Assembly: GCA_963804955.1 (NCBI GenBank)
Contig: CAWDSQ010000011.1
Location: 94,399 to 158,398, forward strand
Direction of reading: 5' to 3'
From: an uncultured delta proteobacterium
GTDB lineage: Bacteria > Desulfobacterota > WTBG01 > CAIYCZ01 > CAIRTM01
Length of the DNA stretch: 64,000 nt
In this document: one piece after another, positions 11,530 to 64,000 of the stretch
Layout: every line of letters begins with the position of its first letter
Numbering within the stretch: position 1 is the stretch's first letter
The notes under the pieces: generated by a model
Told to the model about the DNA's origin: nothing
The model's database searches: none
The model's input: the letters and a program-made list of their open reading frames with translations, nothing else
Program-made: the position numbers and the translations under genes

Positions 11530-11621
11530 TACTACAGATCTTTTTTTGATATGAGCCTTTGGCGAGCCGGAATAACTGTGGAGGTCCTTTCGAACTCTGC
11601 GTTAAACCAGAGATAATCAGA

Positions 11622-12051
11622 ATGAAACTCAGAAAATATATTTTTTGAGTAAGTATATAAGAATCAGTGTAAGTGATGCTCCCCGCCTACAAGGCGGGGC
11701 ATCCCGGTAGATAAGATTGATTTTTTTGAGACGTGCCGCTTGACCCCGCTTACAAAGCGGGGCTTGCGCGGCACATTCCGATCAAAAGAAGAGATTTAAA
11801 GAATTCAATTCGGCCTTTTGAAATCGATCGTTTCGCATGCGTATGAGACAGTTTCTTGTTATCGGAGATTTTTTCAACACGCAAATATTCTTACCAATGA
11901 AATTAAATCATTGAATGAGCCGAATAAAATTCATGTGACAAGAAAAAAGGATTTGCTGTCTTTGGAGACGAATCAGCTCGTATCTTTATCCTATCAGCAA
12001 AAGGTCAATTGCCGGTTTGGAAAAAGATCGCGGCACCTTTTGGAAAAATGA
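11622..12051 (+). pseudogene. Remnant of a second PaaK/CapK-like gene interrupted by the 114-bp element
   Basis: RRDLKRIQFGLLKSIVSHAYETVSCYRRFF...VTRKKDL is a PaaK N-terminus; ATG at 11622 lies upstream of the insertion. Confidence 0.6.
11672..11785 (-). mobile_element. 114-bp double-hairpin element, copy 2 (inverted)
   Basis: Reverse complement of 8180-8293 with about 3 mismatches. Confidence 0.65.
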
Positions 12052-13268
12052 AAGAACTACCTTCAATTATCTATGATTGGATGCCAAAAGGCGTGAGAAA
12101 TTTTATTTCTCCCGTATTAGAGCCGGCCTATTCCTTCCTGAAAAGATGTGTTTTGTTGGCCGATAAAATTCGATGGCCTGTTTGTGTACTCAGGGGAAAA
12201 GAAAAATGGAGCAATGAGAATCTTACAGTTTTATGTTGTGCCGCAGAACAGATGGTGACCTATCTTTCCAGTATTCTGTATTCGGGGGAACCTGAAAAAG
12301 AAAGTCTTGGGAAGTGTTTTATATGGCAGGTCGAATCCAGATTTAATTCAGAAAAATTTACTGCTGATTTGATTTTTATTGAAACGGACAAAATATTTTC
12401 CCCTTTCCTGAGGCAGCGCGGATTTAAAATCATCCCACAGTGGATTTTATTCATCCTTGAAATTTCAAGGCCATTATCTGAAATTTGGAGAGAGATAAAA
12501 AATAAAAGCCTGTCGGACAACCTGAGAATAGTTCGGAAGTATCAATATGTTTACGAAATGACACGAGATCTTGCAAAATATAATGACTGGTATCGTCAAA
12601 TGTATGTGCCTTATGCACTGGAGCGGTTCGGAGACGCTTCAATGACTTACGGTTTTCGAAAATTAAAGAGAACCTTTGAAAGGGGTCAAATTCTGTTTGT
12701 TAAGAGAGACAATGACCATCTGGCTGGAACCTTAATCGTGACACATGGAAAAGATGCCTGGGTACATTCATTAGGAATAAGAACCGGGAACCACAATTTC
12801 TTAAAACAGGGGGTTGTTTCAGCCTCATATTATTTCACGGTTCTATGGGCAAAAGAAAAAGGATATGAACATATAGACTTTGGCCATTGCCGTCCTTTTC
12901 TTAATGATGGTGTTTTTATTTATAAAAAAAATTGGGGGATGGCGGTTAAGAAAAGTAACCGAATGCAAAGCGTTTTAGGTCTCAAGGTATTCAATCCAAG
13001 TCAAGGTGTAAAAGCTTTTTTAGCAAATAACCCGTTCGTCTTCATTGACCGGGGAAAGATGAAGGGATTTGTTTTAATTCAAAAAAATGATCCGCTTACA
13101 CCTGGAGAGGTTCGATCTCTATTCAAAAAATACTATATTTCCGGTCTCGATTGCCTGATCATTAATTCCCCCCAGGGTTTTACTTCAAGTGCCCGGGAAA
13201 CAGCTGCGATAGAATTCCCCCAAACCCTTTATCTGACAGAAATGGACTTGAAAACGTTTTTCAAGTAA
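12009..13268 (+). CDS. GNAT/FemAB-like acyltransferase-fold protein
   Basis: ASYYFTVLWAKEKGYEHIDFG..RPFLNDGVFIYKKNWG; AT-rich. Confidence 0.65.
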   Translation: MPVWKKIAAPFGKMKELPSIIYDWMPKGVRNFISPVLEPAYSFLKRCVLLADKIRWPVCVLRGKEKWSNENLTVLCCAAEQMVTYLSSILYSGEPEKESLGKCFIWQVESRFNSEKFTADLIFIETDKIFSPFLRQRGFKIIPQWILFILEISRPLSEIWREIKNKSLSDNLRIVRKYQYVYEMTRDLAKYNDWYRQMYVPYALERFGDASMTYGFRKLKRTFERGQILFVKRDNDHLAGTLIVTHGKDAWVHSLGIRTGNHNFLKQGVVSASYYFTVLWAKEKGYEHIDFGHCRPFLNDGVFIYKKNWGMAVKKSNRMQSVLGLKVFNPSQGVKAFLANNPFVFIDRGKMKGFVLIQKNDPLTPGEVRSLFKKYYISGLDCLIINSPQGFTSSARETAAIEFPQTLYLTEMDLKTFFK

Positions 13269-49878: not shown

Positions 49879-50070
49879 TTATCGTTTCAGCCACGAACGG
49901 GCCTGGGAAAGGGAAGGGGCTTTAAGCCACTGTTCGAGCTCGTGTTCGTCAACAGCTATTGATTCCGGGGCCTGGCCCAGATCACAGCGCTCACTGTTTT
50001 CAAGCCACTCGATTATTTCTCCCAGGGCTTCAAGTTCGTCAAGAAGTTCTCTATCCTTTTGTTTGCTCAT
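49879..50070 (-). CDS. Small acidic hypothetical protein
   Basis: 63-aa ORF with protein-like composition. Confidence 0.4.
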   Translation of the reverse strand: MSKQKDRELLDELEALGEIIEWLENSERCDLGQAPESIAVDEHELEQWLKAPSLSQARSWLKR

Positions 50071-50747
50071 ACTTTGTGCCGTTATCCCTTTAACAAATCA
50101 TGTTGCGAACAGTTAATAGCATCGACATATTCAAGGGAAACTTTATCGAAATCAGTGGCAAAGTCAGTCTGTTAAAATCTATAAAAAAGCTCTTTTTTTT
50201 GCCCGCCTTTACTATCCTGTGGCTGATACTGGAAAAGAACGTCTGTAAATTTCCGGCCTTTTTTTTCAAAAATTTTTGCTGTCGGCCATGAGAAAAAGCC
50301 CGAAACAAAAAACAAGCCCTGGCGGGGAGCGCATACAGACGTTTTCCGGAGTTGCATACCGTGTGGCCGGACAGTCAGCCGGCCGGGTCGAACCAATAAG
50401 AGAATCCGGGGGTATATCAAACTGTCAACAAAGGGGCCCTATTCAATTATACACAAAAAATATGCCCATTTCATCCCCCTGTGAAAAAGGGGATACAGGG
50501 GATTTTTTGCGCTGATAACCATCTTTTGCAAGGGATTTCGCCAGCTGGGTGTCTACGGGTTTGTGAAGACCGTCATGGCCTGAAGCCCCGGTCGGCGGGT
50601 ATGCCTGTCGTAAACGGGGGGGGGCCGAAAGGTGATAATGAATGGCGTCGGTGAAGGCCAGCGGGCAGGCATGCGTCCTGGCCGAAAACGCACCGGCGGT
50701 GCAGGCTTCGCCTGCACTCACCGGCATGGAGCACGAGGCGTTCCGCC

Positions 50748-52385
50748 TCAGGATTTTGATGCGGACTTCTTGCGGGAAAAAATGCCCTTGATCAGGCTGA
50801 CAAGCTTTGCGCCCTTTTTCTTTTTCGGAGCGGATTCTTCGCCGTAATATTCCACCACCTTGCCTGTCGAAGCTTCTGGTGATTTTGTGCGGTTGGTGGG
50901 ACGGCGCCTGCGCGGTTTCTTTTTCTTGAGCGCATCTCCTTCAGCAGCAGCCGTGATGCCGGATGGCTGTTGCGCAGGTGCCCGTTCGGGCTTTATAGGC
51001 CTGGCAGCAGCGGCTCTTTCGCCTGCTGCCGCAGGCTTGCCTGCCTGAGCCGCGGGCCTCCGGGAGGGCGGCGCTTTCTCAGCCGGCGCGGACCTCTCGG
51101 CATGTCTGGGCCTTGGGGATGGTCCGCCCCTGCCGGCGCCTCTGCCTCCTCTGTCGCTGGTCCGGCCGCCTCTATCGGCGCTCCGGCCGCCCCTGCTGTC
51201 ACCGCCGGGCCGTCGCCTGTCGTCGTGAAAGCGTATGCCGGCCGATGAATCCTCGATAAAATCATCATCTGTGGCAAAGGCTACGGGGATTTTCACATTA
51301 ATGAGAGCTTCAATTGCCTCAAGACCGTAGACATAGCGCTCGCAGACTATGGTAATGGCTTTGCCCGACTTGCCCGCCCGCGCCGTACGGCCGATCCGGT
51401 GCACATATGCCTCGGGATCTTCCGGCAAATCATAATTCACCACCAGGTCAAGGTCATTGATGTGCAGGCCGCGGGCTGCTACATCTGTGGCCACCAGGAT
51501 ATGCAATTGTCCTGATTTCATGGCATTAATGATGCTGAGACGCTTGCTCTGGGGCAGGTCGCCGACGATGTACTCGCAGGTGAAACCGTTGTGCGCAAGC
51601 CGCTTTGCCACCTCTGCGGCCCTGCTTTTCATATTGGTGAATATAAGCGCGCTGCCCGGGTTTTCCTTCTTGAGAATGCCCAGCAGCAGCTTCATCTTCT
51701 CGTCCCTGTCGACATGGTACAGCATCTGGGTGACCGTCTGGACAGTGACCTGCTCGGGGGCCACCTCGACCTCGGCAGGGTCGGTCATATACTCGGCGGC
51801 AAGATCGCGCACTTTGCCCGAAAGGGTTGCGCTGTACAGCATGGTCTGCCGGCTGCCCGTAGGGGGCAGCTTTTTAATCATGCGCCGCAGGTCGGGAAGA
51901 AAGCCCATGTCAAACAGGCGGTCAGCCTCGTCGATAACAAGGATGCCTATATCGTCAAATCGCAGCTTCCCCGACTGATTGAGGTCGATGAGCCGGCCGG
52001 GCGTTCCAATAATCACGTCAACGCCTTTGCGAAGCATTTCCTCCTGGCGGTGGTAGCCGACGCCGCCGTAAAAGCAGCCGGTAGAAAAGGGCAGATGCGC
52101 GCCCAAAAGTTTTGCCTCATCCTCGATCTGTATGGCCAGCTCCCGGGTCGGCGCTATGATGAGGGCCCGCTTGGGAAATTTGAAATGCTCCTGCGTGAAC
52201 AGCTGAAATATGGACACGAGAAATGCCGCTGTCTTGCCCGAGCCGGTCTGCGACTGCACCAGCACATCCCTGCCCTCCAGGGCGTAGACATAGGTTTTTT
52301 CCTGTACGGGCAGGCAGTCGGTAAAATCTGCATCTTTGATGCCCTGTTGAAGTTCTTCCGTAAGATTTAATTCCGTAAATTTCAT
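50748..52385 (-). CDS. DEAD-box RNA helicase (RhlB-like)
   Basis: QTGSGKT, PTRELA, DEAD, SAT and HRIGRTAR motifs; basic tail. Confidence 0.95.
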   Translation of the reverse strand: MKFTELNLTEELQQGIKDADFTDCLPVQEKTYVYALEGRDVLVQSQTGSGKTAAFLVSIFQLFTQEHFKFPKRALIIAPTRELAIQIEDEAKLLGAHLPFSTGCFYGGVGYHRQEEMLRKGVDVIIGTPGRLIDLNQSGKLRFDDIGILVIDEADRLFDMGFLPDLRRMIKKLPPTGSRQTMLYSATLSGKVRDLAAEYMTDPAEVEVAPEQVTVQTVTQMLYHVDRDEKMKLLLGILKKENPGSALIFTNMKSRAAEVAKRLAHNGFTCEYIVGDLPQSKRLSIINAMKSGQLHILVATDVAARGLHINDLDLVVNYDLPEDPEAYVHRIGRTARAGKSGKAITIVCERYVYGLEAIEALINVKIPVAFATDDDFIEDSSAGIRFHDDRRRPGGDSRGGRSADRGGRTSDRGGRGAGRGGPSPRPRHAERSAPAEKAPPSRRPAAQAGKPAAAGERAAAARPIKPERAPAQQPSGITAAAEGDALKKKKPRRRRPTNRTKSPEASTGKVVEYYGEESAPKKKKGAKLVSLIKGIFSRKKSASKS

Positions 52386-52574
52386 AACAAGCCTTTCAAT
52401 TGCTGAACCGTAAAACGTGAAGGATATGCTGCCAGTGTTGAGTAATTGCCATCATACAGGGTTCGGCTGCTATGAGCAAGGCTCTTTTTGGGGCCTGAGC
52501 CTTTTGAGGAATTGCTTTGATGCGGGCGGCAGTCTGTGCTACTCTTTAATCAATTAGAAAAAGGAGATTCTGCC

Positions 52575-53576
52575 GTGCCTGAATTGCGCAAAGACCCCAT
52601 TATAGACCGATGGGTTATCATATCCACTGAACGGTCCAAGCGCCCCTCGGACCTGCTGGTCGAAAAGACCCGCAGCCGGGTCGGATTCTGCCCCTTGTGC
52701 CCCGGCAATGAAGATAAAACCCCGAATGAAGTTTTTGCCGTGCGCGACGGCAATACGCCGCCCGACACGCCCGGCTGGAAGCTGCGGGTCGTGCCCAACA
52801 AATTTCCCGCGCTGGTGACTACGGGCGATCTGAACAAGCGAACCGAAGGCATCTACGACAGAATGAACGGCCTTGGCGCCCATGAGATCATCATCGAAAC
52901 GCCCGACCACTATGCCACCGCCACAACCATGACGGTTGATGACTTCAAAAACATCATGATCGCCTGGCGGCAGCGCATTCTTGCCTACCGGCAGGACAGC
53001 CGCTTCCGCTATACTGCCATATTTAAAAATTACGGCGAAATTGCCGGCGCAACGCTCGAGCATCCCCACTCGCAGCTCATCGCCCTGCCCGTGGTTCCCA
53101 AGCGGGCAGTGGAGGAAATAGAAGGCGCCCAGGCCTATCACGCCCAACGGGATCGCTGCGTTTTTTGCGACATCATCGGCCAGGAACTGGCCGACACGCG
53201 CCGCATTGCCGCCGAGAACGACCGCTTTCTGGCCTTCGAGCCTTTCGCCTCGCGCTTTCCGTTTGAGACCTGCGTTATCCCGAAAATGCATACCGCTTCG
53301 TTCGAGGATGCCGACGAGGCCATGATCGACGCCCTTGCAGATATGATGAATACGATTTTGAAAAAAATCAACGCGGCCCTGAATTCTCCGCCCTACAACT
53401 GCATGCTGCATTCCTCTCCGTTCAATACGGACGTGGGCGCGTTTTACCACTGGCATATAGAGATAACGCCCCGCCTGACGCGTGTCGCGGGCTTTGAATG
53501 GGGAACGGGCTTTTACATCAATCCCACGCCGCCCGAGCAGGCGGCCCAGTATCTGCGCGAAGCGCAGGTAGGCTGA
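52575..53576 (+). CDS. galT: Galactose-1-phosphate uridylyltransferase
   Basis: RSKRP, CPLCPGNE, VPNKFPAL, HPHSQ and HWHIE motifs. Confidence 0.93.
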   Translation: MPELRKDPIIDRWVIISTERSKRPSDLLVEKTRSRVGFCPLCPGNEDKTPNEVFAVRDGNTPPDTPGWKLRVVPNKFPALVTTGDLNKRTEGIYDRMNGLGAHEIIIETPDHYATATTMTVDDFKNIMIAWRQRILAYRQDSRFRYTAIFKNYGEIAGATLEHPHSQLIALPVVPKRAVEEIEGAQAYHAQRDRCVFCDIIGQELADTRRIAAENDRFLAFEPFASRFPFETCVIPKMHTASFEDADEAMIDALADMMNTILKKINAALNSPPYNCMLHSSPFNTDVGAFYHWHIEITPRLTRVAGFEWGTGFYINPTPPEQAAQYLREAQVG

Positions 53577-53609
53577 CCCGGCAGCGCCGGGCAGCACAAG
53601 GAGGATACC

Positions 53610-53963
53610 ATGAAGAAGCTTCTCTTTGCAGACGACGAGGAAAGCATCCGGCTGCTGTACAAGGAAGAATTCGAGGAGCTGGGCTACGAGGTCATTCTCG
53701 CTGCAGACGGCCATGAGGCTCTCGAGTTGTTTTCCCTGCATGCTCCCGACCTTCTGGTCATCGACATCAAGATGCCCGGCATGGACGGCATCGAGCTGCT
53801 CCAGCGCGTGCGCGAGCAGTCGCGCCAGGTGCCGGTCATCCTGTGCACCGCCTATGGCGAGTACAAGCAGAACCTTGAGACCTGGGCATCTGATGAGTAT
53901 GTGGTGAAATCGGCCAATCTCGACGGGCTGATGAAAAAAATTGAAAAGCTGCTGATAAAATAA
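53610..53963 (+). CDS. Single-domain response regulator
   Basis: ADDE, DIKMPGMDG, TA and K motifs. Confidence 0.9.
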   Translation: MKKLLFADDEESIRLLYKEEFEELGYEVILAADGHEALELFSLHAPDLLVIDIKMPGMDGIELLQRVREQSRQVPVILCTAYGEYKQNLETWASDEYVVKSANLDGLMKKIEKLLIK

Positions 53964-54255
53964 TCTTCCCAGGCATATCCGGGGGGCATACTAAGAGAGA
54001 AGTCAGGAGCCAGCAGGTGCGGAAAAAAGTTCGGAGTTCGGAGTTCGGAGCAGGATGATTCAAGATTCCGGATTCATGATTCAAGACACAGTGTGGGGGC
54101 TGGTTGCAAACCTGTTCAGAGTTCGGATTTCGGAGGATTGAAGAGTTAGAAGCTGATGTGCTCTTCTGTGCTGAATTCTGAATACGGAATCCTGTATTCT
54201 TTTCTAAAGGAACATAACCGCACATACCTGCTTCTGAACGAAAAGTCATTTTTTT

Positions 54256-54357
54256 GCAGGTTGGGTTAAGCCCGAAAGAAACCGTTGGGTTTCGTACCTC
54301 AACCCAACCAAAAACAAATGCTTACGAACAAGCACTGTCATAAGGGCGAACCCGACA
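54256..54357 (+). repeat. REPIN/BIME-like element, copy 3 of 3
   Basis: Near-identical to 38785-38895. Confidence 0.8.
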
Positions 54358-54397
54358 TAATGTATGGTTCAGGGTTTTCGTTCAGGCAATAAGTATA

Positions 54398-54476
54398 CTC
54401 AACTTGACTGACTTTTTAAGCGGTGCCAGCCTGCTCAGTGGCACGCCGCTTGCGTCGGGCGGACTAATAAAACCAC
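54398..54476 (-). mobile_element. Partial copy of the 3312-3520 MITE
   Basis: Reverse complement of about 3438-3520. Confidence 0.75.
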
Positions 54477-54531
54477 CTGCGATAATGCTGCATATCTAGA
54501 ATCATAATCTCTTGTGAAAGTGAAAGCTGCA

Positions 54532-55920
54532 ATGGGAAATGATATCTCCGGCCAACTCAACACCTACGGACAGGAACACATTCTCAACTATCTTGAACGC
54601 ATGAACACCTGTGAACGGCAGTCTCTGCTGGAGGATGCGGCACACATTGATCTCAAACAGATAGCCGGGCTTTTCAGCTCCTACCGCTCATCGCGGCAGC
54701 AGGGGCATGAGCAAAAAGTCTTCGAAGCAGCTGAGGTGCTTGCGTTTCCGCCCACTGACGTGTTTGCCGCCGAGCGCGGCAGGCTGACAGCCCTCGGGCA
54801 GGACATGCTGCGGCAGGGCCGCGTGGCGATTTTTCTTGTTGCCGGCGGCCAGGGCACGCGCCTCGGGTACAACGGCCCCAAGGGCTGCTTTCCGGTTTCG
54901 CCGGTCAGGCGGAAAAGCCTGTTTCAGCTGTTTGCCGAAAGCATTATGGCCCTGCGCCGCCGCTATAACGCCGCGCTGCCCTGGTATATCATGACCTCTC
55001 AGGAAAACAATGCCGCCACCTGCGCCTTCTTCAAAGAGCACGGCTTCTTCGGCCTGGGCGCCGACACGGTCCAGTTCATCATCCAGAAGGAAAACCCCTC
55101 TCTTGACCTTGACGGCCGGCTGATCGTATCGCCGGATAAAAAGATTTTCAAAAACCCCAACGGCCACGGCGGCTCTCTCTATGCAATGAAAGATTCCGGC
55201 GCTCTTGCGCAGATGGCAGCCCTCGGCATCGACGAGATATTCTACTTCCAGGTAGACAATCCGCTGGCAAAGATAGCCGACCCCCTGTTTATAGGCGCGC
55301 ATGTGGAAAACCGTGCGCAGATGTCGACCAAGGTCGTGCGCAAGGTGGATCCGTCTGAAAAGGTGGGCATCATAGGCCGCGTCAACGGCAGGCTCGGCTG
55401 CATTGAGTACAGCGAGCTGTCGCAGGCCGAAATAGCCGAGCGGCTCCCTGACGGCAGGCTGCGGTTCTCCAGCGCCAATATGGCCATCCATATGCTGAGC
55501 CGCGCCTTTGTTGAAAAGCTCACCAGCGACCCTGAATTCAGGCTCCCCTATCATATCGCGGTGAAGGGCATTGACTGCCTTGCACCTGACATGGCCACGG
55601 TAAAAAAGATCGATGGCCTCAAGTTTGAGATGTTTATTTTCGACGCCCTGGGTTTTGCCGAGCGCTCGGTGACACTGGAGGTGCCGCGGGAGGAGGAGTT
55701 CTCTCCGGTAAAAAACAGCACCGGCGCCGATTCGCCCGGCACAGCCCGCGCGGCCATGATCAGCCAGCACCGCTCGTGGCTGCAGGGCTCGGGCAAGCTT
55801 CCCGCCGTGCCTGATGATCTGACCATTGAAATCAGCCCCCTCTATGCCCTTGATGCAGCCGAGTTTGCGGAGAAATTCTCATTCCCGCCAAACCTGTCTT
55901 CAACTTTATATGTCGAGTAG
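54532..55920 (+). CDS. UDPGP type 1 family nucleotidyltransferase (UDP-GlcNAc/UDP-Glc pyrophosphorylase)
   Basis: AGGQGTRLG..GPKG, PNGHGG, QVDNPL, IEYSE, KFEMFIFD and EFSPVKN motifs. Confidence 0.92.
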   Translation: MGNDISGQLNTYGQEHILNYLERMNTCERQSLLEDAAHIDLKQIAGLFSSYRSSRQQGHEQKVFEAAEVLAFPPTDVFAAERGRLTALGQDMLRQGRVAIFLVAGGQGTRLGYNGPKGCFPVSPVRRKSLFQLFAESIMALRRRYNAALPWYIMTSQENNAATCAFFKEHGFFGLGADTVQFIIQKENPSLDLDGRLIVSPDKKIFKNPNGHGGSLYAMKDSGALAQMAALGIDEIFYFQVDNPLAKIADPLFIGAHVENRAQMSTKVVRKVDPSEKVGIIGRVNGRLGCIEYSELSQAEIAERLPDGRLRFSSANMAIHMLSRAFVEKLTSDPEFRLPYHIAVKGIDCLAPDMATVKKIDGLKFEMFIFDALGFAERSVTLEVPREEEFSPVKNSTGADSPGTARAAMISQHRSWLQGSGKLPAVPDDLTIEISPLYALDAAEFAEKFSFPPNLSSTLYVE

Positions 55921-56055
55921 GATGAGAGCAGGGGCATCGGCCCCGGCTGACCGGCTGAAGGAGCGAAAAAAAACAAAGCGGTTGAGGCACAGGGCCGCAA
56001 CCGCTTGCTGATTTTGTTTGGTAAAGAAATGGTGCGGTGTGCGCACCCTGTCGTG

Positions 56056-56265
56056 TCACGCAGGTGTTACATTTTCCGCCTGAGGACCCTTCGGACCCTG
56101 GGTGACTTCCATGGTAACCTTCTGGCCTTCGGAAAGCGTTTTGCGGCCGGTTCCATTAATGGCGCTGTGATGTACAAAAACATCTTTGCCGCCTTCTCTT
56201 TCTATGAAACCAAAACCCTTTTCTTCGTTGAACCATTTCACTGTTCCGGTAACTAATTCTGACAT
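56056..56265 (-). CDS. Cold-shock protein (CspA family)
   Basis: GTVKWFN, KGFGFI and DVFVH motifs. Confidence 0.95.
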
Positions 56266-56389
56266 ACAAACCTCTTCACTTAAAAGTTCGCCAACTTCAA
56301 TTGGCATTACAAAACGCAAGCCTCACGACGAGGCTGGCATCTAACCTCTTCGGCTGGAGAGCGCGGGCTCTCTGCCGGAAAGAATACAT

Positions 56390-56539
56390 TCAGTCTGCCT
56401 CTGCACTTCCGGGGCTATCCGCATCGGTTTCCGGCTGCAGCTTTTTTTTCTCTAACCGGACGCGCCTTTTTTCTTCCTGCTTTTTTTTCTTTGCCAAATC
56501 CCTCTGGCGCTTTTCATATTGATAATTCGGTTTTGCCAC
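56390..56539 (-). CDS. 49-aa basic small protein (absent from the ORF track)
   Basis: GTG start; MAKPNYQYEKRQRDLAKKKKQEEKRRVRLEKKKLQPETDADSPGSAEAD. Confidence 0.7.
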   Translation of the reverse strand: MAKPNYQYEKRQRDLAKKKKQEEKRRVRLEKKKLQPETDADSPGSAEAD

Positions 56540-57284
56540 CTTGCCACCATTGTAGGAGAAAAAAAGGAGCTTGCCTAGGAACCGCGCTGCTTTTCTGTAA
56601 TGAAGCGCGATAAGCGGCAGATACTCTCAGCGGATTAAAAAGCCCCAACCTTAATTTTAAAGGATACTATCTCATGTATTCGACCGAGCCATGAACGCTT
56701 ATTTCAAATTGTATAGATATTGTCAAGGGATTTAGTTTCATGCTCTTTTTTGTTGCAAGCAAAAAAAGAGCATGGCGCCCACCGCCCCCTCTTCTTGTAC
56801 TCCATTATAGGGGGTTGGTAAGCTGTAATTTTTTGGCATGCCATGCAGCTGTCCGGAGAGCCGTTATACGGCATTTCAGGCAGGCATGGTTACTCAAGTA
56901 GTATGTTGAGCTAAAGGCTGAACCTCCTCTCCGCTCCTCAAGCCCCTTTTTTTTGCAAAGCTGTTTTTGCTGGCGTACAGGCACAAGGGCTTTAGTAGCG
57001 CATGGCAGCCCCTTGTGCTCATTATGAGTAGATTGATTTGCTAATTGTTACTCATTTTGAATACACACAAGCTGTAAATATGGTTTTTTAGGAGTGAAAA
57101 AACTTTATTTATGTAAGCACGTAAGAAAATTTAAATTTCATGTGCAACATTTTTTAAATTTTTCTCTCTCAATGCAGGAACCAGCAAAGAATGCGTTCAT
57201 ATTGGCACAGTATGTGTAATATGACAAGGTGTCGAGCAAGACACATGTATTAAAAACCAGGCACAGAAAGACATATCAGCAGCA

Positions 57285-57368
57285 AGCCGAAAAAGGCAAA
57301 CCAGTCGTAAGATTGGGACGCAAAACCACCGGTCCTTACATATATGCAAGGATAGCGGGGCAGCCGGA
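57285..57368 (+). promoter_or_regulatory. Cyclic-di-GMP-I (GEMM) riboswitch
   Basis: GGCAAACCagtc-GTAA-gattGGGACGCAAAaccaccGGTCC...GGATAGCGGGGcaGCC follows the class-I consensus. Confidence 0.9.
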
Positions 57369-57395
57369 CAGGGAAATGATATACATATCAGTCCG

Positions 57396-57426
57396 GCCCC
57401 TCCGTGCAATCAGGAGGGGCTTTTTA
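57396..57426 (+). terminator. Riboswitch-linked intrinsic terminator
   Basis: gcccctcc-gtgcaatca-ggaggggc followed by a T run. Confidence 0.85.
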
Positions 57427-57517
57427 TTGCAAGAGGCATTGGGCTTTGCTCAAACCGGCACTCCTATCGCGCACAGCATTTGAAACGATTGCATCAAACG
57501 CTTATCCGGGGATTACT

Positions 57518-57904
57518 ATGACTGTGAATTTTGAAAAGCCGCGCATACTGATTGCCGACGACGATTGCGTCATACGTTCTCTGATCAAAGAGTTTTACGA
57601 GGAATACGACTTTGAGCTGATCGAGGCGGTTAATGGACAGGAGGCGGTTGCCCGGACCCGAGACTGTAACCCCAGCCTGATTCTGCTGGACATACAGATG
57701 CCGGTTTTGAACGGATATGAAGCAGCAGCCATACTGAAAAATGACGAAGCTGTTAAAGACATTCCGATACTTGTTATTACCGGTCAGGAGCGCAGGGAGG
57801 TAGAGAAGCGGATAAGCGGCATGTATGATGGGTATGTGTGTAAACCCTTCAAAAAAGCGGATCTGATTCAAGCGACCATGCAGTGCCTGCCCGGTAGACA
57901 ATAA
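57518..57904 (+). CDS. Single-domain response regulator
   Basis: IADDD, DIQMPVLNG and KPF motifs. Confidence 0.9.
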   Translation: MTVNFEKPRILIADDDCVIRSLIKEFYEEYDFELIEAVNGQEAVARTRDCNPSLILLDIQMPVLNGYEAAAILKNDEAVKDIPILVITGQERREVEKRISGMYDGYVCKPFKKADLIQATMQCLPGRQ

Positions 57905-58000
57905 ATAAAAAGGGGACGCGGAAAATAGAACAGGTAATCAGGGAACCGTACCCGCGTAATCCGGCTGTTTTGTGCGGGACCATCAACCAGTACAGGAGTC

Positions 58001-58357
58001 ATGCAGAACATGGAAGAATCTCTCTATGCAAAGATGCGCGCCAAGGCACGCTTCGATGCCAACCTCAAAGCCACCTACAGTATTAAGGGTCAGGGCGCTC
58101 AGCATCAGGAATGCCGGATCGCCAATCTGAGCTCAAGCGGCGCGACAGCCTGTTTTCCGCGCACAGAAAGCCTGCAGAGAGGGGCTGTTGTTGTTATGGA
58201 TATAGCCATACCCAATACGATCATGCGCATTGCCACTGAGGCGGAAATCATGTGGACCAAGCAGCGCTTCAATGAGTTGATAAGCGGCATCAGGTTTACG
58301 GATATGCTCAGCGACAGCATGATCCGGCAGCTTGTTAAAAAAGACCCCGGAAAATGA
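58001..58357 (+). CDS. PilZ domain protein
   Basis: RAKAR (RxxxR), NLSSSG (D/NxSxxG) and GIRF. Confidence 0.8.
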   Translation: MQNMEESLYAKMRAKARFDANLKATYSIKGQGAQHQECRIANLSSSGATACFPRTESLQRGAVVVMDIAIPNTIMRIATEAEIMWTKQRFNELISGIRFTDMLSDSMIRQLVKKDPGK

Positions 58358-58436
58358 TATGGCCACCGGATTCCAGCTGTGCTGCGCAACTTAGAAAAAG
58401 AAAACCCAATGAAGTCATAAAGGGTCAAAAAAAACA

Positions 58437-58632
58437 GTCATTGCGGACGACGTGAAGCAATCCTGCTGTAGTGAGATTGCCGCGGCCTGCGGCCTCGCAA
58501 TGACATTTTGTTAGAGAGTATGCGCAATGACACAAAACTCTATTATGAACCATGTACTGTCATTGCGGACGAAGTTAAGCAATCCCGTTTTTATTAAGAT
58601 TGCCGCGTCAGCGGCTTCGCTCCTTCCGCGCA
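58437..58632. repeat. Two palindromic gtcattgcg...gcaatc/gattgc...cgcaatgac elements
   Basis: Copies at 58437-58504 and about 58559-58632. Confidence 0.65.
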
Positions 58633-58797
58633 CTGAGCCTCGACGGATATCTGTACGAAGGCCATCAAAATTAAGTTGCACAGTCAGCTAGAGCATGTAA
58701 CTCAACGAAGACGGGTTGTCATGTCGAATCCACCACTACAGAAAAAAGGTACATGCTCTAACCTTCCCCATTCCCCGGCTATGAGAATTTTGTATCT

Positions 58798-58839
58798 AAG
58801 GCACCTTTGTGCCAAAAAAATAGCCTTTAGGGCTATTGT
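58798..58839. promoter_or_regulatory. Double-palindrome operator candidate, copy 1
   Basis: AAGGCAC-cttt-GTGCC-A run-AATAGCC-tttag-GGCTATTGT. Confidence 0.7.
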
Positions 58840-58923
58840 ATCATTCTTAAAAATCCCGTAAAATTGTGCCAATCAAATAATTTATTTTATTATTCCTAAT
58901 AACAATTATTAAAATTTATTAAT

Positions 58924-60765
58924 ATGGCTAAATCTGTCGCCGGCAAACAGCAGCTCCTGGAGAATATTTTCGATACCCTCGAAGATGGTCTGATTATTCT
59001 CGACGGCACTGGCATCATAGAAAAGGCAAATGCCTCCGCACAGAAAGTACTGGGCTATACTGAGCGGGAGCTTGTCGGGAAATGCCTGTCGTCTTTTTAT
59101 GCCCAAGACCATTATGAAGAAAATGAGCCTTCGATAATGAGCAGGCTCCTGGCCTGTGGGGATGCTCAACGCTGCGAAGCGAAATTGAGAAGCAAAGACC
59201 ATAATGTTTTTACTGCTTCAATGCAGGCAAGCTTGATTAAGGACCGGAGCGGCAGTATTCTCGGCGGCCTGTGCAGGATCTGCGATGTCACGGCAGGCAA
59301 CCTGATGGCACAGAGCCTGCAAGCGGCCGAGGAAAAATACCGCATCGTGGCCGATTTTACCTGCGACTGGGAGACCTGGGTGGATCCTCTCGGAAACCTT
59401 AACTATATCTCCCCCTCCTGCAAAAAAATAACCGGCTACTCAGCAGAAGAGTTCCTGTCAAATGCGAACCTGCTCAAAGAAATTATTCTGCCCGAAGAAA
59501 TCGAGGCAGTAAAAGCCAGGTATCAAAAAGCCCTTAAGGGGAAAAAGGAGCTTACCCTGCAGTTTCGTATCCGGCGCCGCGACGGCGGGATTCGCTGGAT
59601 AGAGCTCACCAGTCAGCCCGTCATGATTGAAGGGCGCTACCGGGGCCACCGGGCCAGCAACCGCGATATTACCGATCGCAAAGAAGCTGAAAATTCTCTG
59701 CGCCAGAGCGAAGAGCGCTACCGCAGGCTTACAGAAACAGCCCCCGATGCCATCATTACCGCTGACAGTAAACGCCGCATCGTGGCATGGAATTGCGGCG
59801 CGGAAAAAATCTATGGCTTTAAGGCCGAAGAGGTGCTCGGGCGGGACTGCAGCCGTATGATTCCGGAGCGCTTTCGGGCGCGGCACAATGAAATGTTTTC
59901 TCTGCTGCTTGAAAAGGGAGTGGCTGTTTCCAGCAGCGCCGCGATGGAAGGGATCGGGCTGAGAAAGGACGGATCGGAGTTCATTGCTGAACAGACCTGC
60001 AATACTCAGTGGGTAGGAACGGAGGCCTACTTCACCGTCATTGTGCGCGATATAACGCAGCGAAAGGAGATTGAAAAGAGACTGTATGAAAGCGAGGAAC
60101 TGTTTCGGCTGAGCTTTGAAAACGCGCCCGTCGGCATTGCCATTTTTGACCGGAGCGGAGCGCTCATGCGGGCAAACAGCGCCTTTCAGCAGTGCCTCAA
60201 CCGCACGCTGCAGGAGCTCCAGGAGCAGGGGCTGGATCACTTTCTGCACTACGAGGACCGCGATAAAAGCATCCGGGGCTTTGCTGCCGACCCGCAGCGG
60301 CTTCGTGAGCATATGGTCGTTGAAAGCCGCTATTTCATGGGCAGCGGCACCGTCATGTATACCAATCAGCACATACAGGGGGTTTTCGGCCCCGACGGAG
60401 ACCTGCGGTTTATTGTTGTGCTCATCGAGGATATAACCGACACCAAGCGGTTCAATCTGTTCAATGTGAACATTATAAAAAACATAAAGGGACTCTATCT
60501 CCAGCTGCAGGAACTGTCCGAAACTCTGCCCGACGGCCAGCAGTTAGCCGATTCTAAATCACTGTGCGATTATGCCCTGTCGCCCACGGAAACCCGCGTT
60601 GCAGCCATGATATACCACGGCTACACCAACGAAAAAATAGCCAGGCAGCTCTGCATTTCAGTAAATACGGTCAAGCACCATATCACCAACATTTACGCTA
60701 CGCTCAAGGTGGGAAACCGCCTTGAGTTCATCAGCACGATACGGGATAAACGTATTGTTATCTAG
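58924..60765 (+). CDS. Multi-PAS LuxR-family transcriptional regulator
   Basis: Four PAS/PAC repeats ending DVT/DIT; LSPTETRVA...GYTNEKIARQLCISVNTVKHHITNIY.TL.V. Confidence 0.92.
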   Translation: MAKSVAGKQQLLENIFDTLEDGLIILDGTGIIEKANASAQKVLGYTERELVGKCLSSFYAQDHYEENEPSIMSRLLACGDAQRCEAKLRSKDHNVFTASMQASLIKDRSGSILGGLCRICDVTAGNLMAQSLQAAEEKYRIVADFTCDWETWVDPLGNLNYISPSCKKITGYSAEEFLSNANLLKEIILPEEIEAVKARYQKALKGKKELTLQFRIRRRDGGIRWIELTSQPVMIEGRYRGHRASNRDITDRKEAENSLRQSEERYRRLTETAPDAIITADSKRRIVAWNCGAEKIYGFKAEEVLGRDCSRMIPERFRARHNEMFSLLLEKGVAVSSSAAMEGIGLRKDGSEFIAEQTCNTQWVGTEAYFTVIVRDITQRKEIEKRLYESEELFRLSFENAPVGIAIFDRSGALMRANSAFQQCLNRTLQELQEQGLDHFLHYEDRDKSIRGFAADPQRLREHMVVESRYFMGSGTVMYTNQHIQGVFGPDGDLRFIVVLIEDITDTKRFNLFNVNIIKNIKGLYLQLQELSETLPDGQQLADSKSLCDYALSPTETRVAAMIYHGYTNEKIARQLCISVNTVKHHITNIYATLKVGNRLEFISTIRDKRIVI

Positions 60766-60976
60766 GCGTTTTCACTCCCGACATCCAGGATCATCCATCC
60801 CCTGCTCATGTCAACGCTCAGCAATCCCTGCACCGGCTTTCTTCATTGTCTTCAGAAAATCATCGCCTGTGGCGATACTTCTTGAAGCAGGCACCTCAAA
60901 CACTGCGTGTTTTTGCTGACGCCCTTTCAGGGCGAAATCAAGCGCCGCTCGGGTGGCTTGATTTCAACCAAACCCG

Positions 60977-61018
60977 AAGGCACTATAGTGCCTAAAAAAT
61001 AGCCCTTGGGGCTATTGT
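60977..61018. promoter_or_regulatory. Double-palindrome operator candidate, copy 2
   Basis: AAGGCAC-tata-GTGCC-t-A run-AATAGCC-cttgg-GGCTATTGT. Confidence 0.7.
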
Positions 61019-61377
61019 TGTATCCGATAATATAATTTAATATTCCATTACTAAATTATGTTTCTTGAAAGCAGATGGCAGGAAAGGCAATGGCGAAATC
61101 AACACTCATCTGTTCACAGCCTTCATGGCATATAAGCAAAAAAGGAGGTCGTCATAACCGGCGTTTTCATACTTAGATGATCAGGCTAATGCTTAATAAT
61201 CGATACGGGGTTTGTTATCATATTTCTGCTCACGAAATTGATGCCCGGCAGAGTGCGTGATTGCATATTGAACCGGTTGTTACCACCGGTCTGTGTCTCG
61301 CCGTATCACCTGAGCAGGAAGGCCAATGGCGCCGTGAACGAAACTGAAACAAACTAACTGGAAAATGTAATTTTCTT

Positions 61378-61587
61378 ATGGAAGGCAAAATATATATGAA
61401 TAGAAAGATCGCTAAAAGCCCGCAATTTGATTGCGAGGCCTGTAAAAATAATCGAAGGTTATTAGAGCCCGGCTCTGACAATCAGGGAAAATGCCTGCCC
61501 TTAGAAGGACGGCTATGCCTTCTGGAGTCACCATTAGAAAGATTAAAGGCGCCGCAGTTGAGTGATTACACTGAACTGATTTGGTAA
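61378..61587 (+). CDS. Small Cys-containing hypothetical protein
   Basis: CEAC plus two further Cys; co-oriented with the downstream peptide. Confidence 0.35.
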   Translation: MEGKIYMNRKIAKSPQFDCEACKNNRRLLEPGSDNQGKCLPLEGRLCLLESPLERLKAPQLSDYTELIW

Positions 61588-61657
61588 ACAGGCGTCAATT
61601 AAAAAGCCCCTGTTCTTTTCTTGAATAATTATAAATAGCAAAGGAGGCTGGAGAAAT

Positions 61658-61840
61658 TTGGGCAACAAGAATCCAACTGATAAAAAGCCGTGGCAGAAGC
61701 CGGAACTGATTGTGCTGGTGCGCAGCAATCCGGAGGAGTCGGTTCTGACTATTTGCAAAAATGCAAGCGCTGCAGGCCCGCTCAATAAAAAGAAATGCAA
61801 CAGAGGGCCAAGCGGCTGTAGCGTTATCGGCACTTCCTGA
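61658..61840 (+). CDS. Putative RiPP precursor peptide (60 aa)
   Basis: RBS AGGAGG and TTG start; leader WQKPEL; three Cys in a Gly/Ser-rich core. Confidence 0.7.
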   Translation: MGNKNPTDKKPWQKPELIVLVRSNPEESVLTICKNASAAGPLNKKKCNRGPSGCSVIGTS

Positions 61841-62057
61841 CTATCTCCATTGTACGAGTAATGTTGTAGCGTCAAGACCGGCTTTTGACAGTTTTGATGA
61901 TGAATGGATACGCCTTTTTCCCTCTCTTGCTTCATCTGAACCCACACTCTTTTAGGTGCGCGTTACATTGTGCAGGGGGCGTTAGGTGAAAATATATCCG
62001 GCTGCATTGCAGTGCAGAGTAGCCTGCAGCGCGGTTTTTTTTGTGAAAGGATCCGGG

Positions 62058-63752
62058 GTGGAATTGCGAAGGGACATCGATTTTTTTTTACGATGGTGGT
62101 GGCTTTTGCTGCTTTGCATGGCTGTGGCCGGCGCTTATTCGTATTTCAGGAGCTCCATGCAGGAACCGGTATATGAGGCTGTGAGTTCAATATTGATCAA
62201 TCAAGCTTCCGGCACAAAGAGCGTCGATATAAATTCAATTCAGCTGAGTGAGCGGCTTGCGCGCACGTATGTTGAGCTGCTGCAGTCAGAGGCGATACTG
62301 TCTGAGGTTGTTTCTCATCTGAAGTGTCCGTTCGATGCCAAAACGCTTGCCGGCATGCTTCAGGTGCGTTTAGTGCGGGATACGCAGCTTATCAAGCTGA
62401 GTGTCGACGATACGGATCCGGTTCGCGCCGCAGCGCTCTGCAACCATATTCCTGAAATCTTCAGCTCATATAATACCAGCACGCAGTTGAGCCGTTTTGA
62501 TGAATCAAAGAAAAGCCTGACCAGGGAAATTGCCGCCCTTGAAAAGCAGATTATGCAGATGGAGTCCCGGATTGCTGCTTTACAGAGCGATACTGTGCCT
62601 GAAGCATCAAACAGGAGGGCTTCTTTGGGATCTGATTTGGTGCGTTTGCGGCAGAGCCGGTCCAACCTGGTGGAAAGTTATGAAAATCAACGTCTGGTAG
62701 AAGCCCAAACTCAGAACAATGTGTTTGTGGTAGACCGGGCAAATGTGCCCGGTTTTCCGATTCGGCCAAACATTCCCCGCAGTGTTCTGGCGGGTGTTGT
62801 AATTGGTTTTCTGCTCGGGGTTGCGCTGATTTTTTTTATTGACTATCTTGATGATTCCATTAAGTGCGCTGAACAGATTACGGATTGTCTCGGGCTTCCG
62901 CTGATTGGGGTGGCTGTTCTTCAGTCGGCTAAGGAGGTCGAGGCCAAACCGATTGCTCATACGACGCCCCGCGCACCCATCACCGAGGCATTTCGATTTA
63001 TACGGTCCAATATCCTCTGGTCAGCCGTCGATAAACCTGTACGCAGGATTCTCGTTACAAGCATTAATGCTCAGGAGGGGAAATCGTTTGTGGCTGCAAA
63101 TCTTGCTGTTGTTTTTGCCCAGGCCGGCAAGTCGGTAGCGCTGCTTGACTGCGATTTGCACCGCCCTTCCCAGCACAGGCATTTTAACAGGGCTAACAGG
63201 CCGGGCCTTTCGGGAATCATACTGCAGGAGACTTTCAATCCTGAAAATATTTTGTTCCCTACGGATGTTCCCAATCTCAGACTGCTTACCGCCGGGGCGC
63301 TTCCGCCGCAACCGGCTGAACTGCTGGGCTCTAATAAAATGGGGCTTTTTCTGGACGCTATAGCCGCGCAGCAGGATTTTATCGTTATTGATTCACCGCC
63401 TATTGCGGCACTGACGGATGCCGCCATGCTTGCCAAAAAGGTTGATGGCGTCGTGCTGGTCGTCGAGGCGGGCAAGACAAGTGTCTCAGATGTGAGGCAC
63501 GCCAAAGAGCAGCTGGAGCGCTCAGGCGCGCATATTACAGGCGTTGTTTTAAACAAGGCGCCTCGTGATCGAAGCAGCTATTATCATTATCACTACAGCA
63601 GCTATTATAATTCCACCTATGGGGAAGGTGGCACGCGAGAACCGGGTTTATTCAGGCAGCCGGTTTTTTATATGCGCTGCTTAGTCAAAAAGCTTTTCTA
63701 TCGACGTTTTTCAAATGAAAAGGAAAAACTGAGCCATTCTGTGCGTAGCTGA
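62058..63752 (+). CDS. Wzc-type polysaccharide co-polymerase/tyrosine autokinase
   Basis: PVYEA Wzz domain, coiled coil, EAFRFIRSN, QEGKS, DCDLHRP, IDSPP and Tyr-rich tail; likely GTG start at 62058. Confidence 0.92.
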   Translation: MELRRDIDFFLRWWWLLLLCMAVAGAYSYFRSSMQEPVYEAVSSILINQASGTKSVDINSIQLSERLARTYVELLQSEAILSEVVSHLKCPFDAKTLAGMLQVRLVRDTQLIKLSVDDTDPVRAAALCNHIPEIFSSYNTSTQLSRFDESKKSLTREIAALEKQIMQMESRIAALQSDTVPEASNRRASLGSDLVRLRQSRSNLVESYENQRLVEAQTQNNVFVVDRANVPGFPIRPNIPRSVLAGVVIGFLLGVALIFFIDYLDDSIKCAEQITDCLGLPLIGVAVLQSAKEVEAKPIAHTTPRAPITEAFRFIRSNILWSAVDKPVRRILVTSINAQEGKSFVAANLAVVFAQAGKSVALLDCDLHRPSQHRHFNRANRPGLSGIILQETFNPENILFPTDVPNLRLLTAGALPPQPAELLGSNKMGLFLDAIAAQQDFIVIDSPPIAALTDAAMLAKKVDGVVLVVEAGKTSVSDVRHAKEQLERSGAHITGVVLNKAPRDRSSYYHYHYSSYYNSTYGEGGTREPGLFRQPVFYMRCLVKKLFYRRFSNEKEKLSHSVRS

Positions 63753-64000
63753 TAACACTGCCGCTTGACATGATGAGCAGGACCCCCCTCTTTTATATAA
63801 GAAGTAACTATATGAAAAAAAAGAGTGCCGCTGGCAGCGCGTCCTGTTCAGCTCGTAAGCTCTGCACAAAAAAGCTGCTCAGCTTCAGCTGCGCTTGGCT
63901 ATAATAACGAAAGCTTCAATGCTCGCCGCGCATGCAGAGATCAGGTGCTCAATAAAATCAGATTCGGCCGGTGCCTGGCAGCATTTTTCTACAAATATTC

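Follow-up and report, generated by a model that had tools for sequence, protein, structure and literature searches.

The window, by which we mean the whole stretch of 64,000 nucleotides (nt) analyzed here (positions 94399-158398 of contig C11 in G000, the genome assembly of an uncultured delta proteobacterium), encodes near its end a 60-residue peptide. The reading that we favor, and hold to be somewhat more probable than all others together, is that this peptide is an orphan precursor from a widespread family of ribosomally made, post-translationally modified peptides (RiPPs) that depend on a RiPP recognition element (RRE), and that the genes around it form four adjoining units and not one biosynthetic system. 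The first unit would be a cyclic di-GMP (c-di-GMP) riboswitch that, with its own terminator, controls a receiver-PilZ operon; the second, a PAS-LuxR transcription factor; the third, the small frames ORF0 and Cys-rich ORF A (ORF, open reading frame) with the peptide, behind the same palindrome as the PAS-LuxR gene; and the fourth, a lineage-specific extra Wzc tyrosine kinase. A sequence-only reading of positions 57285-64000 had proposed a single locus under c-di-GMP and PAS-LuxR control, in which a modified peptide is made alongside an exopolysaccharide. The features that it listed are all there and co-oriented, each being found on the forward strand by Rfam, Pfam/NCBIfam, pattern or ORF evidence. 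Coordinates given without a contig are those of the window, and the features so located lie on its forward strand.

The peptide and its family

The precursor gene (61658-61840) starts with TTG, 9 nt after an AGGAGG. It was assigned from a family alignment (A1), from the contexts and statistics of the family and from the ratio of nonsynonymous to synonymous polymorphism (pN/pS), which is 0.20-0.47 in an intact frame. The leader contains W12-x-x-P-E-L-I-V-L-V-R-S and, further on, C33-K34; the core has C47 and C54, and the peptide ends in Ser. No Pfam or NCBIfam model matches it, and the family is unnamed in either resource. Only 18 clusters among 5.77 billion match the peptide, all of them hypothetical. 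In their alignment, W12, P15-S23, P25-E27, V29, L30 and C33 are invariant; the C-terminal part is variable, with its Cys residues and final Ser kept. The family consensus is WxxPELIVLVRSxPEExVLxxCK.

A scan of species genomes for PELIVLVRS returned 31 loci from many phyla, with hosts that include Chloroflexi, Actinomycetota, Bacillota, Aminicenantes, Coprothermobacterota and a Methanospirillum metagenome-assembled genome (MAG). On metagenome contigs, one such scan gave 155 relatives, the best 80 of which were retained and represent 79 loci. The 141 unique relatives from these loci all have the initial W of the motif, 128 have the terminal Ser, and most carry three or four Cys after the leader.

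Three further copies are present in G000, two on contig C3 and one on contig C32. The leaders of the window and C3 peptides are nearly identical, and DNA shuffling among these peptide loci is evident. The C32 copy (C32:90458-90613, minus strand) represents a second orphan class, encoded directly 3' of a hybrid histidine kinase gene and one for a receiver-Hpt protein; this gene order recurs in the congener G006 (contig C22, locus L031) and in G004 (contig C260, L043), making three genomes in all. The assemblies of G004 and G006 are 76-79% complete. A different setting occurs in a Desulfomonile MAG (L061, 10864-14347), where an orphan precursor is followed by genes for HlyD-like and C39-peptidase ABC exporter proteins and preceded by one for an outer-membrane efflux protein, a bacteriocin-type export set.

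A maturation cassette on another contig

The two C3 peptides belong to a gene cluster that also encodes a ScmC-like (kinase-like) protein, a radical SAM (rSAM) enzyme, a PqqD protein, a signal-peptidase-like/GNAT fusion and a second rSAM enzyme. An MsbA-like ABC exporter, a PF14907 nucleotidyltransferase and, at the end of the cluster, a 742-residue Wzc-like protein complete the set. The kinase-like protein, PqqD, the peptidase-GNAT fusion and the PF14907 protein are each encoded once in the G000 assembly, which comprises 36 contigs and is 87% complete, and the congener G006 carries the same cluster (on its contig C17). The two rSAM proteins are 40% identical to each other; both have a CxxxCxxC motif, a C-terminal CX2CX5CX2C cluster and further C-terminal Cys.

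Linkage of the peptide family to this cassette was counted by tblastn, with the C3 proteins as queries, within the fetched flanks. At least one cassette gene was found in the flank of 16 of the 31 genome loci and of 58 of the 79 metagenome loci, though most of the metagenome contigs are shorter than 5 kb. Among the 79, the matches were to rSAM (46 loci), PqqD (35), the kinase-like protein (26), the peptidase-GNAT fusion (20), the ABC exporter (7) and PF14907 (6). Precursors adjoin rSAM and RRE genes across lineages; the window copy does not. The PqqD proteins have a mean column identity of 67% across phyla, a degree of conservation that fits the invariant leader. Because the family is linked to cassette genes, we regard the window peptide as the likely precursor of an RRE-dependent, rSAM-bearing RiPP, and because the cassette is single-copy and on C3, that precursor would be an orphan. 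From these sequence relationships, it is probably matured in trans by the C3 cassette. The modified peptide of the earlier reading is thus borne out, in that the precursor is of the RiPP type and its family is linked to rSAM/PqqD genes at the frequencies just given.

Within the cassette, PqqD (60.9 bits) and PF14907 (212 bits) are matched, and the ABC_tran and ABC_membrane domains exceed their cut-offs; the exporter reaches 281.8 bits with the MsbA model, below its cut-off. Other results weigh against the proposed route of maturation. The peptidase scores below its cut-offs (TIGR02228, 28.4 against 51.85; PF00717, 16.3 against 23.3). Pfam reports no SPASM domain for the C3 rSAM proteins, only PF04055 at E values up to 0.1. 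The kinase-like protein has a GHSEAGKST P-loop, and when it was compared by profile with PDB sequences, the sole matches were P-loops of ABC transporters (E 0.09 or worse); its structural model, with a mean predicted local distance difference test score (pLDDT) of 64, is closest in fold to phosphoenolpyruvate (PEP) carboxykinases (E 9e-5, TM score about 0.4) and not to HprK. The PEP carboxykinase fold is that of the superfamily to which HprK belongs. Further, because the genome is 87% complete, a second cassette could exist in it. In four distant cassettes (L050, L055, L060 and L065), frames of 645-730 residues end in the ScmC-like domain; they may include an N-terminal fusion partner or have over-extended starts.

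Modeled as a complex, the C3 PqqD and the window peptide scored 0.50, the best of three controls 0.06. Of 157 solved complexes, 116 pass the mark applied to this score, as do 2 of 215 mismatched pairs; the passes at 0.60 or under comprise 18 of the solved complexes and both of the mismatches. The runs agreed in at least 95% of contacts, with a partner pLDDT of at least 49. The model lends weak support to binding, and its pass may reflect memory, given that RRE-leader complexes have already been solved.

The PAS-LuxR regulator and a double palindrome

The gene at 58924-60765 encodes a regulator with four PAS domains (TIGR00229, 266 bits in 4 stretches) and a GerE/LuxR helix-turn-helix (PF00196, 51 bits); paralogs occur on contigs C14 (53% identity) and C36 of G000. 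The two "operators" that the sequence-only reading had placed around this gene are real elements and, by sequence, candidate operators: they are copies of a single 37-bp composite double palindrome, GGCAC-N4-GTGCC-N6-ATAGCC-N5-GGCTAT. The first (58800-58836) ends 88 nt 5' of the PAS-LuxR start, and the second (60979-61015) precedes the small-gene unit. Both match the pattern exactly, and these two matches compare with none in 100 shuffles.

The element is rare. Among 17 genomes of the family, it occurs six times in G000, five times in G004 and four times in G006, with none in the other 14; the reversed pattern, used as a control, is absent from all 17. The three palindrome-bearing genomes are the same ones of the genus that have strong matches to the peptide; G014, which belongs to a different genus, lacks the palindrome and matches the peptide only weakly. 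A copy lies between the PAS-LuxR gene and the peptide unit in G004 (contig C364), in locus L040 and, with two mismatches, in G006 (contig C34). Elsewhere in G000, the palindrome stands ahead of the genes for two PilZ paralogs (C7:221906 and C7:263023) and a TSP3-repeat protein (C10), and one copy lies just 3' of the C14 PAS-LuxR paralog. We infer from sequence that the palindrome may be the operator of a small regulon, for which the PAS-LuxR protein is the obvious candidate binder.

Against this assignment, no palindrome was found within three mismatches in locus L074, the second hairpin of the 58800-58836 copy scores as a terminator-like site on the minus strand, and palindromes are found 0-214 nt after PAS-LuxR genes. 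The element could be a bidirectional terminator instead of an operator; the C10 copy, which sits between divergent genes with nothing there to terminate, speaks against that possibility. A sigma-54 promoter was also considered for GGCAC-N4-GTGCC. The sigma-54 consensus is TGGCACG-N4-TTGCW, and the candidate was rejected on spacing, which is one base short of the consensus.

The C14 PAS-LuxR paralog and its palindrome are followed by an ORF of 76 codons (C14:23161-23391; L070, 4161-4391) whose product contains CxxCK ... FSHGICPEC; it resembles the small zinc-ribbon-like domain found at the ends of sensor proteins.

The small-gene unit

Two small frames precede the peptide gene. ORF0 (61190-61357), known from an alignment (A5) and its translations, is a putative gene whose product would have a hydrophobic stretch, GFVIIFLL. 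The frame is conserved across five loci; the window copy has no canonical start before 61238, and its relatives are longer. ORF A (61378-61587) would encode a product of 69 residues that contains four Cys and ends in the tail QLSDYTELIW, and its frame is kept open across loci. It lies directly 5' of the peptide gene in G004 C364 (67% identity), L040 and L074, and also 5' of a weak peptide-like fragment on contig C383 of G004; the four Cys are conserved and the tail, (Q)L.DYTE(L/I)IW, is invariant. ORF A matches no Pfam or NCBIfam family, and the best score in an Atlas feature search was only 0.78. The constraint on both frames is weak (pN/pS of 0.54-0.91 for ORF0 and 0.49-0.80 for ORF A), a point against the favored reading. 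Elsewhere in G000 (C32:84100-85653 and C32:95563-96399; L011), genes for GMP synthase, YdjC and a GT1 glycosyltransferase are broken into adjacent frames, likewise in G006. Such breaks point to indel errors of the kind common in MAGs assembled from long reads, and the boundaries of short ORFs in G000 therefore need care.

The tail of ORF A is shared. As QL(S/C)DYTE(L/V)IW, it closes exactly three ORFs in G000, namely ORF A (61552-61599) and two PilZ paralogs (C7:223007-223039 and C7:438625-438666), and it closes a PilZ paralog in G006 as well (contig C4; L027, 1112-1531, minus strand). It has the look of a tag used in docking or recognition, or else of a 3' segment that has recombined. A stretch of about 40 nt from the peptide gene's 5' end (88% identity) recurs just upstream of a tail-bearing PilZ paralog in two species (G000 C7:222610-222649, about position 3600 of L072; G006 C4:63068-63121), read there in another frame. 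The 5' regions of peptide and PilZ genes appear to have been exchanged.

The common tail of ORF A and the PilZ paralogs fits a different view of these genes, in which ORF0, ORF A and the peptide act unmodified as a small secreted or regulatory module (a signaling peptide, or a partner switch working through the DYTELIW tail) and the likeness of the leader to those on C3 is a matter of ancestry. The small-gene unit does travel together in three or four loci that have no cassette gene nearby. Yet the leader residues that are invariant across phyla beside the cassette are equally invariant in the orphan copies, which is hard to explain unless these copies still meet the RRE and the enzymes. The terminal Ser and the positions of the Cys residues have been retained as well. 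We consider an unmodified module a slim prospect next to the orphan-precursor reading.

Sister and orphan loci

A PAS-LuxR gene lies directly 5' of the peptide unit in the window and in L039 (G006 C34), L040 and L074, and a PilZ gene precedes the PAS-LuxR gene in the window, L039 and L040. The genes 3' of the peptide are a CHASE8-HAMP sensor in G006 C34, small unassigned ORFs in L074, and, in L040, an MshEN-T2SSE ATPase (10499-12199), a methyl-accepting chemotaxis protein and a TSP3-repeat protein. MshEN is a c-di-GMP-binding domain. The genes of L040 are 78-80% identical to those of the window lineage. No maturase, glycosyltransferase or Wzc gene was found in the fetched sequence after the peptide in L039/G006 C34, L040 or L074. 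Ten orphan loci of other lineages have mixed contexts: one is flanked by genes for UDP-glucose dehydrogenase and a GT2 glycosyltransferase, one by glycoside hydrolases and one precedes a C39-ABC/HlyD exporter, and the remainder lie by integrase, toxin-antitoxin or unassigned genes.

Such variety could mean that the adjacency in the window is incidental, with the riboswitch-receiver-PilZ genes, the PAS-LuxR gene, the small genes and wzc all independent, and the peptide a surplus duplicate without dedicated regulation and possibly little used. That the genes 3' of the peptide differ in every sister locus, that the ten orphan precursors occupy heterogeneous contexts, that DNA has evidently been shuffled between these loci, and that both the receiver-PilZ module (with paralogs on C1, C24, C7 and C8) and the GEMM-I riboswitch (11 aptamers) are multi-copy all agree with this idea. 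It does not account for the PAS-LuxR-peptide order kept in three further loci (in two of them with PilZ), for the intact peptide frame and its low pN/pS, for the second orphan class of kinase, receiver and peptide retained in three genomes, or for a rare palindrome that is confined, among the genomes of the family, to the three with this peptide subfamily and stands ahead of the PAS-LuxR gene, the peptide unit and PilZ paralogs. We therefore rate incidental adjacency as unlikely, if the strongest of the alternatives. Within this lineage, gene order suggests that the peptide is tied to regulators more than to polysaccharide genes. Of the regulated surface or biofilm module envisaged at the outset, the regulatory neighborhood is supported: c-di-GMP components and a PAS-LuxR gene flank the peptide both in the window and in sister loci. 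The module is probably not self-contained.

The Wzc paralog and the contig end

The gene 3' of the peptide (61986-63752) encodes a Wzc-type polysaccharide co-polymerase and bacterial tyrosine kinase, with Wzz and GNVR domains (PF02706, 33.5 bits; PF13807, 31.6 bits), a kinase domain (TIGR01007, 190.5 bits against a cut-off of 108) and a Tyr-rich C-terminal tail, SSYYHYHYSSYYNSTY. With the equivalog model for E. coli Wzc it scores 154 bits against a cut-off of 1068. Sequence comparison identifies it as a lineage-specific extra copy of an exopolysaccharide (EPS)-locus Wzc. It is 67% identical in amino-acid sequence to a Wzc on contig C7, the similarity is confined to the gene body, and the C7 gene sits in a full EPS locus with genes for a low-molecular-weight protein tyrosine phosphatase, Bac_transf, an epimerase and GT1 enzymes. 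G004 and G006 have one Wzc of this type each, syntenic with the C7 copy and not with that of the window. No gene for an initiating sugar transferase, a glycosyltransferase or a phosphatase was found in the 36-57 kb upstream or before the contig end.

The last frame (63825-64000) opens a small ORF that is truncated where the contig stops; its C-terminal, CFI-box-like segment scores below the cut-off of NF041770 (E 0.0012). It is a short paralog of signal-peptide proteins of about 210-250 residues (contigs C1, C14 and C13) and lacks their N-terminal domain. Contig C11, 158,398 bases long, ends exactly at window base 64000, and this end overlaps no other contig end (k = 21-127 and blastn).

The abrupt end leaves room for further genes, and so for a self-contained peptide-plus-polysaccharide system, whose rSAM, RRE, peptidase, exporter and glycosyltransferase genes would lie just beyond 64000 and be co-transcribed with the peptide gene and wzc. 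The last two are separated by 145 nt with no forward-strand terminator-like site between them. Three metatranscriptome runs of one study contained next to no words from the window stretch. Beyond the window, three lineages have a Wzc-like gene within or beside the cassette, namely the genus itself (C3 and G006 C17), an Actinomycetota lineage (L048, L096 and L100) and a Bacillota MAG (L052), amounting to 3 of the 31 genome loci and 2 of the 79 metagenome loci; and in the available part of PMC13381572, clusters for linear polyphosphorylated peptides (LPPs) are placed in capsule loci near a tyrosine autokinase. These parallels notwithstanding, the cassette genes are single-copy in the assembly and reside on C3, no cassette gene follows the peptide in the fetched sequence of the three sister loci, the window Wzc is a gene-body paralog of the C7 EPS Wzc with no counterpart beside the peptide in G004 or G006, and the contig closes with a truncated CFI-box-like gene, not one for a glycosyltransferase. 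A self-contained system thus seems to us quite improbable, and the earlier prediction that maturases and glycosyltransferases lie beyond 64000 is probably wrong. Nor is the peptide-wzc linkage conserved: the adjacency is found only in the window, and the sister loci have other genes in that place. What survives of the polysaccharide link is the recurrence of a Wzc-like gene with the cassette; the window wzc itself is a paralog, with no glycosyltransferases found in 36-57 kb upstream. The sequence-only reading was to be given up if the genome had neither RRE nor maturase and the peptide homologs were unlinked to polysaccharide genes; G000 has both on C3, and the homologs have Wzc-like neighbors in these lineages.

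The riboswitch and the receiver-PilZ operon

The region opens with a GEMM-I (c-di-GMP-I class) riboswitch aptamer (57286-57369), which exceeds the gathering score of two Rfam models: RF03167, a GGC variant (64.3 bits, cut-off 59, E 1.5e-13), and RF01051, the general c-di-GMP-I model (61.5 bits, cut-off 35). The scores differ by less than 3 bits, with the GGC variant slightly ahead. In the Rfam alignment, the aptamer has an A where the consensus of the GGC model has G (ACGCAAA as opposed to ACGCGAA). We take the ligand of the GGC variant to be unsettled. No second Rfam family was found in positions 50000-64000 (14,001 bases, E up to 1). G000 has 11 GEMM-I matches, the window aptamer included.

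An intrinsic terminator (57395-57427), recognized from sequence, fold and an inverted repeat (I4), follows as an expression platform coupled to the aptamer; its stem is formed by GCCCCTCC and GGAGGGGC, followed by TTTTTATT. The hairpin and U-run lie 26 nt 3' of the aptamer, and a competing pairing joins the 3' strand of the aptamer (57356-57369) to 57391-57404, which overlaps the 5' arm of the terminator. From this layout, the element is probably a transcriptional switch in which the ligand-closed aptamer leads to termination, with expression off.

Downstream are genes for a stand-alone CheY-like receiver (57518-57904 from its ATG start; PF00072, 73.7 bits), with the DDD, LLDIQMP, T and K positions readable in its translation, and a single-domain PilZ protein (58001-58357; PF07238, 33.8 bits, cut-off 22.5). 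The PilZ protein is a predicted c-di-GMP receptor with both motifs in its translation, RAKAR (RxxxR) and NLSSSG ((D/N)xSxxG), and is 80% identical to that of G006 C34. Receiver and PilZ paralogs are found on contigs C1, C24, C7 and C8 of G000, and receiver paralogs follow further GEMM-I copies, for example on C24. Neither a riboswitch at gathering score nor any further Rfam family was found in sister loci L039-L043, which weighs against a role of the aptamer in the wider peptide system; because of this absence, the riboswitch link to the peptide is taken to be local.

Three tandem GEMM-I aptamers with a spacing of about 310 nt occur on contig C36 (6837-6917, 7147-7227 and 7462-7542), and two P-loop (Wzc-kinase-like) matches lie just 5' of them (C36:2329-2850 and 5741-6262).

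A proposed explanation and its meaning

We propose the following course of events for the window peptide. The C3 PqqD-type RRE would bind its WxxPxL leader, and the two C3 radical SAM/SPASM-like enzymes would modify the Cys-bearing core. The P-loop kinase-like protein and the PF14907 nucleotidyltransferase may then work on the invariant Ser at the C terminus, by analogy with paeninodin and pseudomycoidin; the S26-type peptidase-GNAT fusion would cut off the leader, and the MsbA-like ABC pump would export the product. Orphan copies such as those in the window and on C32 could let different sensory inputs choose the core that is fed to a single machine. For the window copy, these inputs would be c-di-GMP, by way of PilZ, and the PAS-LuxR protein, by way of the palindrome.

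A bolder version of this scheme, to which we give little credence, would make all dispersed orphan precursors sensory-gated inputs (through the c-di-GMP riboswitch and PilZ, PAS-LuxR, or the kinase/receiver pair) and would have a Wzc-type co-polymerase receive the product, phosphorylated and glycosylated on its terminal Ser, to prime, cap or regulate the exopolysaccharide, with the palindrome as operator of the regulon and DYTELIW as a docking tag of PilZ and ORF A. Were it true, a covalent or regulatory peptide-polysaccharide link would control the biofilm matrix.

Under the orphan-precursor reading, an rSAM-bearing relative of the LPP/paeninodin-type peptides has a precursor copy among biofilm-signaling parts, namely a c-di-GMP riboswitch, PilZ, PAS-LuxR and a Wzc paralog, and a rare palindrome connects the peptide to PilZ paralogs and a secreted repeat protein. 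If this wiring is real, it offers a concrete and testable link between the peptide class and matrix control, and an example of one maturation cassette that serves several separately regulated precursors. Genome mining that looks only near maturases misses orphan precursors of this kind, in a family that is large and unnamed in NCBIfam and Pfam.

Relation to known systems

The riboswitch is a familiar one. Like the GEMM-I riboswitches of Geobacter-type Deltaproteobacteria, it scores above the cut-off, has a terminator-type platform, occurs in multiple copies and precedes receiver and PilZ genes; unlike them, it is slightly better described by the GGC variant model.

Among named systems, the best (weak) matches of the cassette are to SynChlorMet (Scm; NCBIfam/TIGRFAMs), with which it shares a ScmC-like protein, a PqqD homolog (ScmD) and two PqqE-like rSAM enzymes (ScmE and ScmF). 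The equivalog cut-offs are missed by wide margins: 23.4 against 125 for ScmC, 28.3 against 100 for ScmD, and 63.0 and 66.1 bits against 400 each for ScmE and ScmF. Further, the C3 cassette adds the peptidase-GNAT fusion, the ABC pump, PF14907 and Wzc. A full-text literature search gave no match for "SynChlorMet", nor for "PF14907" combined with "PqqD". Sactipeptides and ranthipeptides also have an RRE-dependent rSAM enzyme with a C-terminal Cys cluster and three or four Cys in the core, and PapB- and StsB-type maturases show weak full-length likeness to the C3 rSAM proteins, far below the family cut-offs. Neither class features phosphorylation- or glycosylation-type enzymes such as those predicted here, nor an invariant Ser at the C terminus.

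The closest published kind, in the available parts of the two papers that describe it, is that of the LPPs (lppA-K-B-S-D-N) and the paeninodin-like lasso peptides of Bacillota (Popov et al., Nat Commun 2026, PMC13381572; PMC8498205). In paeninodin-type precursors, homologs of HPr kinase (poly)phosphorylate the Ser at the C terminus, and a nucleotidyltransferase adds hexoses to that Ser phosphate (PMC8498205); the portion of PMC13381572 consulted states that the role of these phosphopeptides is unknown and speculates on one in biofilms. The RRE-binding motif of the LPP leader, [Y/W]xxPx[L/V/I/F/A], has its counterpart in W12-Q-K-P15-E-L17 of the window peptide, and the invariant C-terminal Ser corresponds to the site that is phosphorylated in paeninodin-type peptides. 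Gene types are shared as well: the C3 cassette encodes PqqD as a discrete RRE, a peptidase with weak likeness to signal peptidases, a kinase-like P-loop protein, PF14907 and an MsbA-like exporter. It adjoins a polysaccharide tyrosine kinase, and there are several precursors per genome.

The differences from the LPPs, as these are presented in the same portions of text, are considerable. Beyond the RRE-binding motif, the present family does not follow the LPP leader consensus, YxxPxVLxHQxIxFETxxS; its core bears Cys, and its kinase fold is assigned only at the superfamily level. The conserved cassette has two radical SAM/SPASM-like enzymes and a GNAT fusion, whereas "radical SAM" goes unmentioned in the available text of PMC13381572, and LPPs are defined there by phosphorylation as the primary modification without another class-defining enzyme, a definition that the two rSAM genes take the present family outside. 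The hosts are anaerobic Deltaproteobacteria-type MAGs and members of many phyla as opposed to Bacilli, and the window precursor is an orphan beside c-di-GMP and PAS-LuxR regulators. By its sequence, then, the window peptide is best described as a predicted orphan precursor of an LPP-like, rSAM-bearing RiPP family, set in a c-di-GMP/PAS-LuxR neighborhood.

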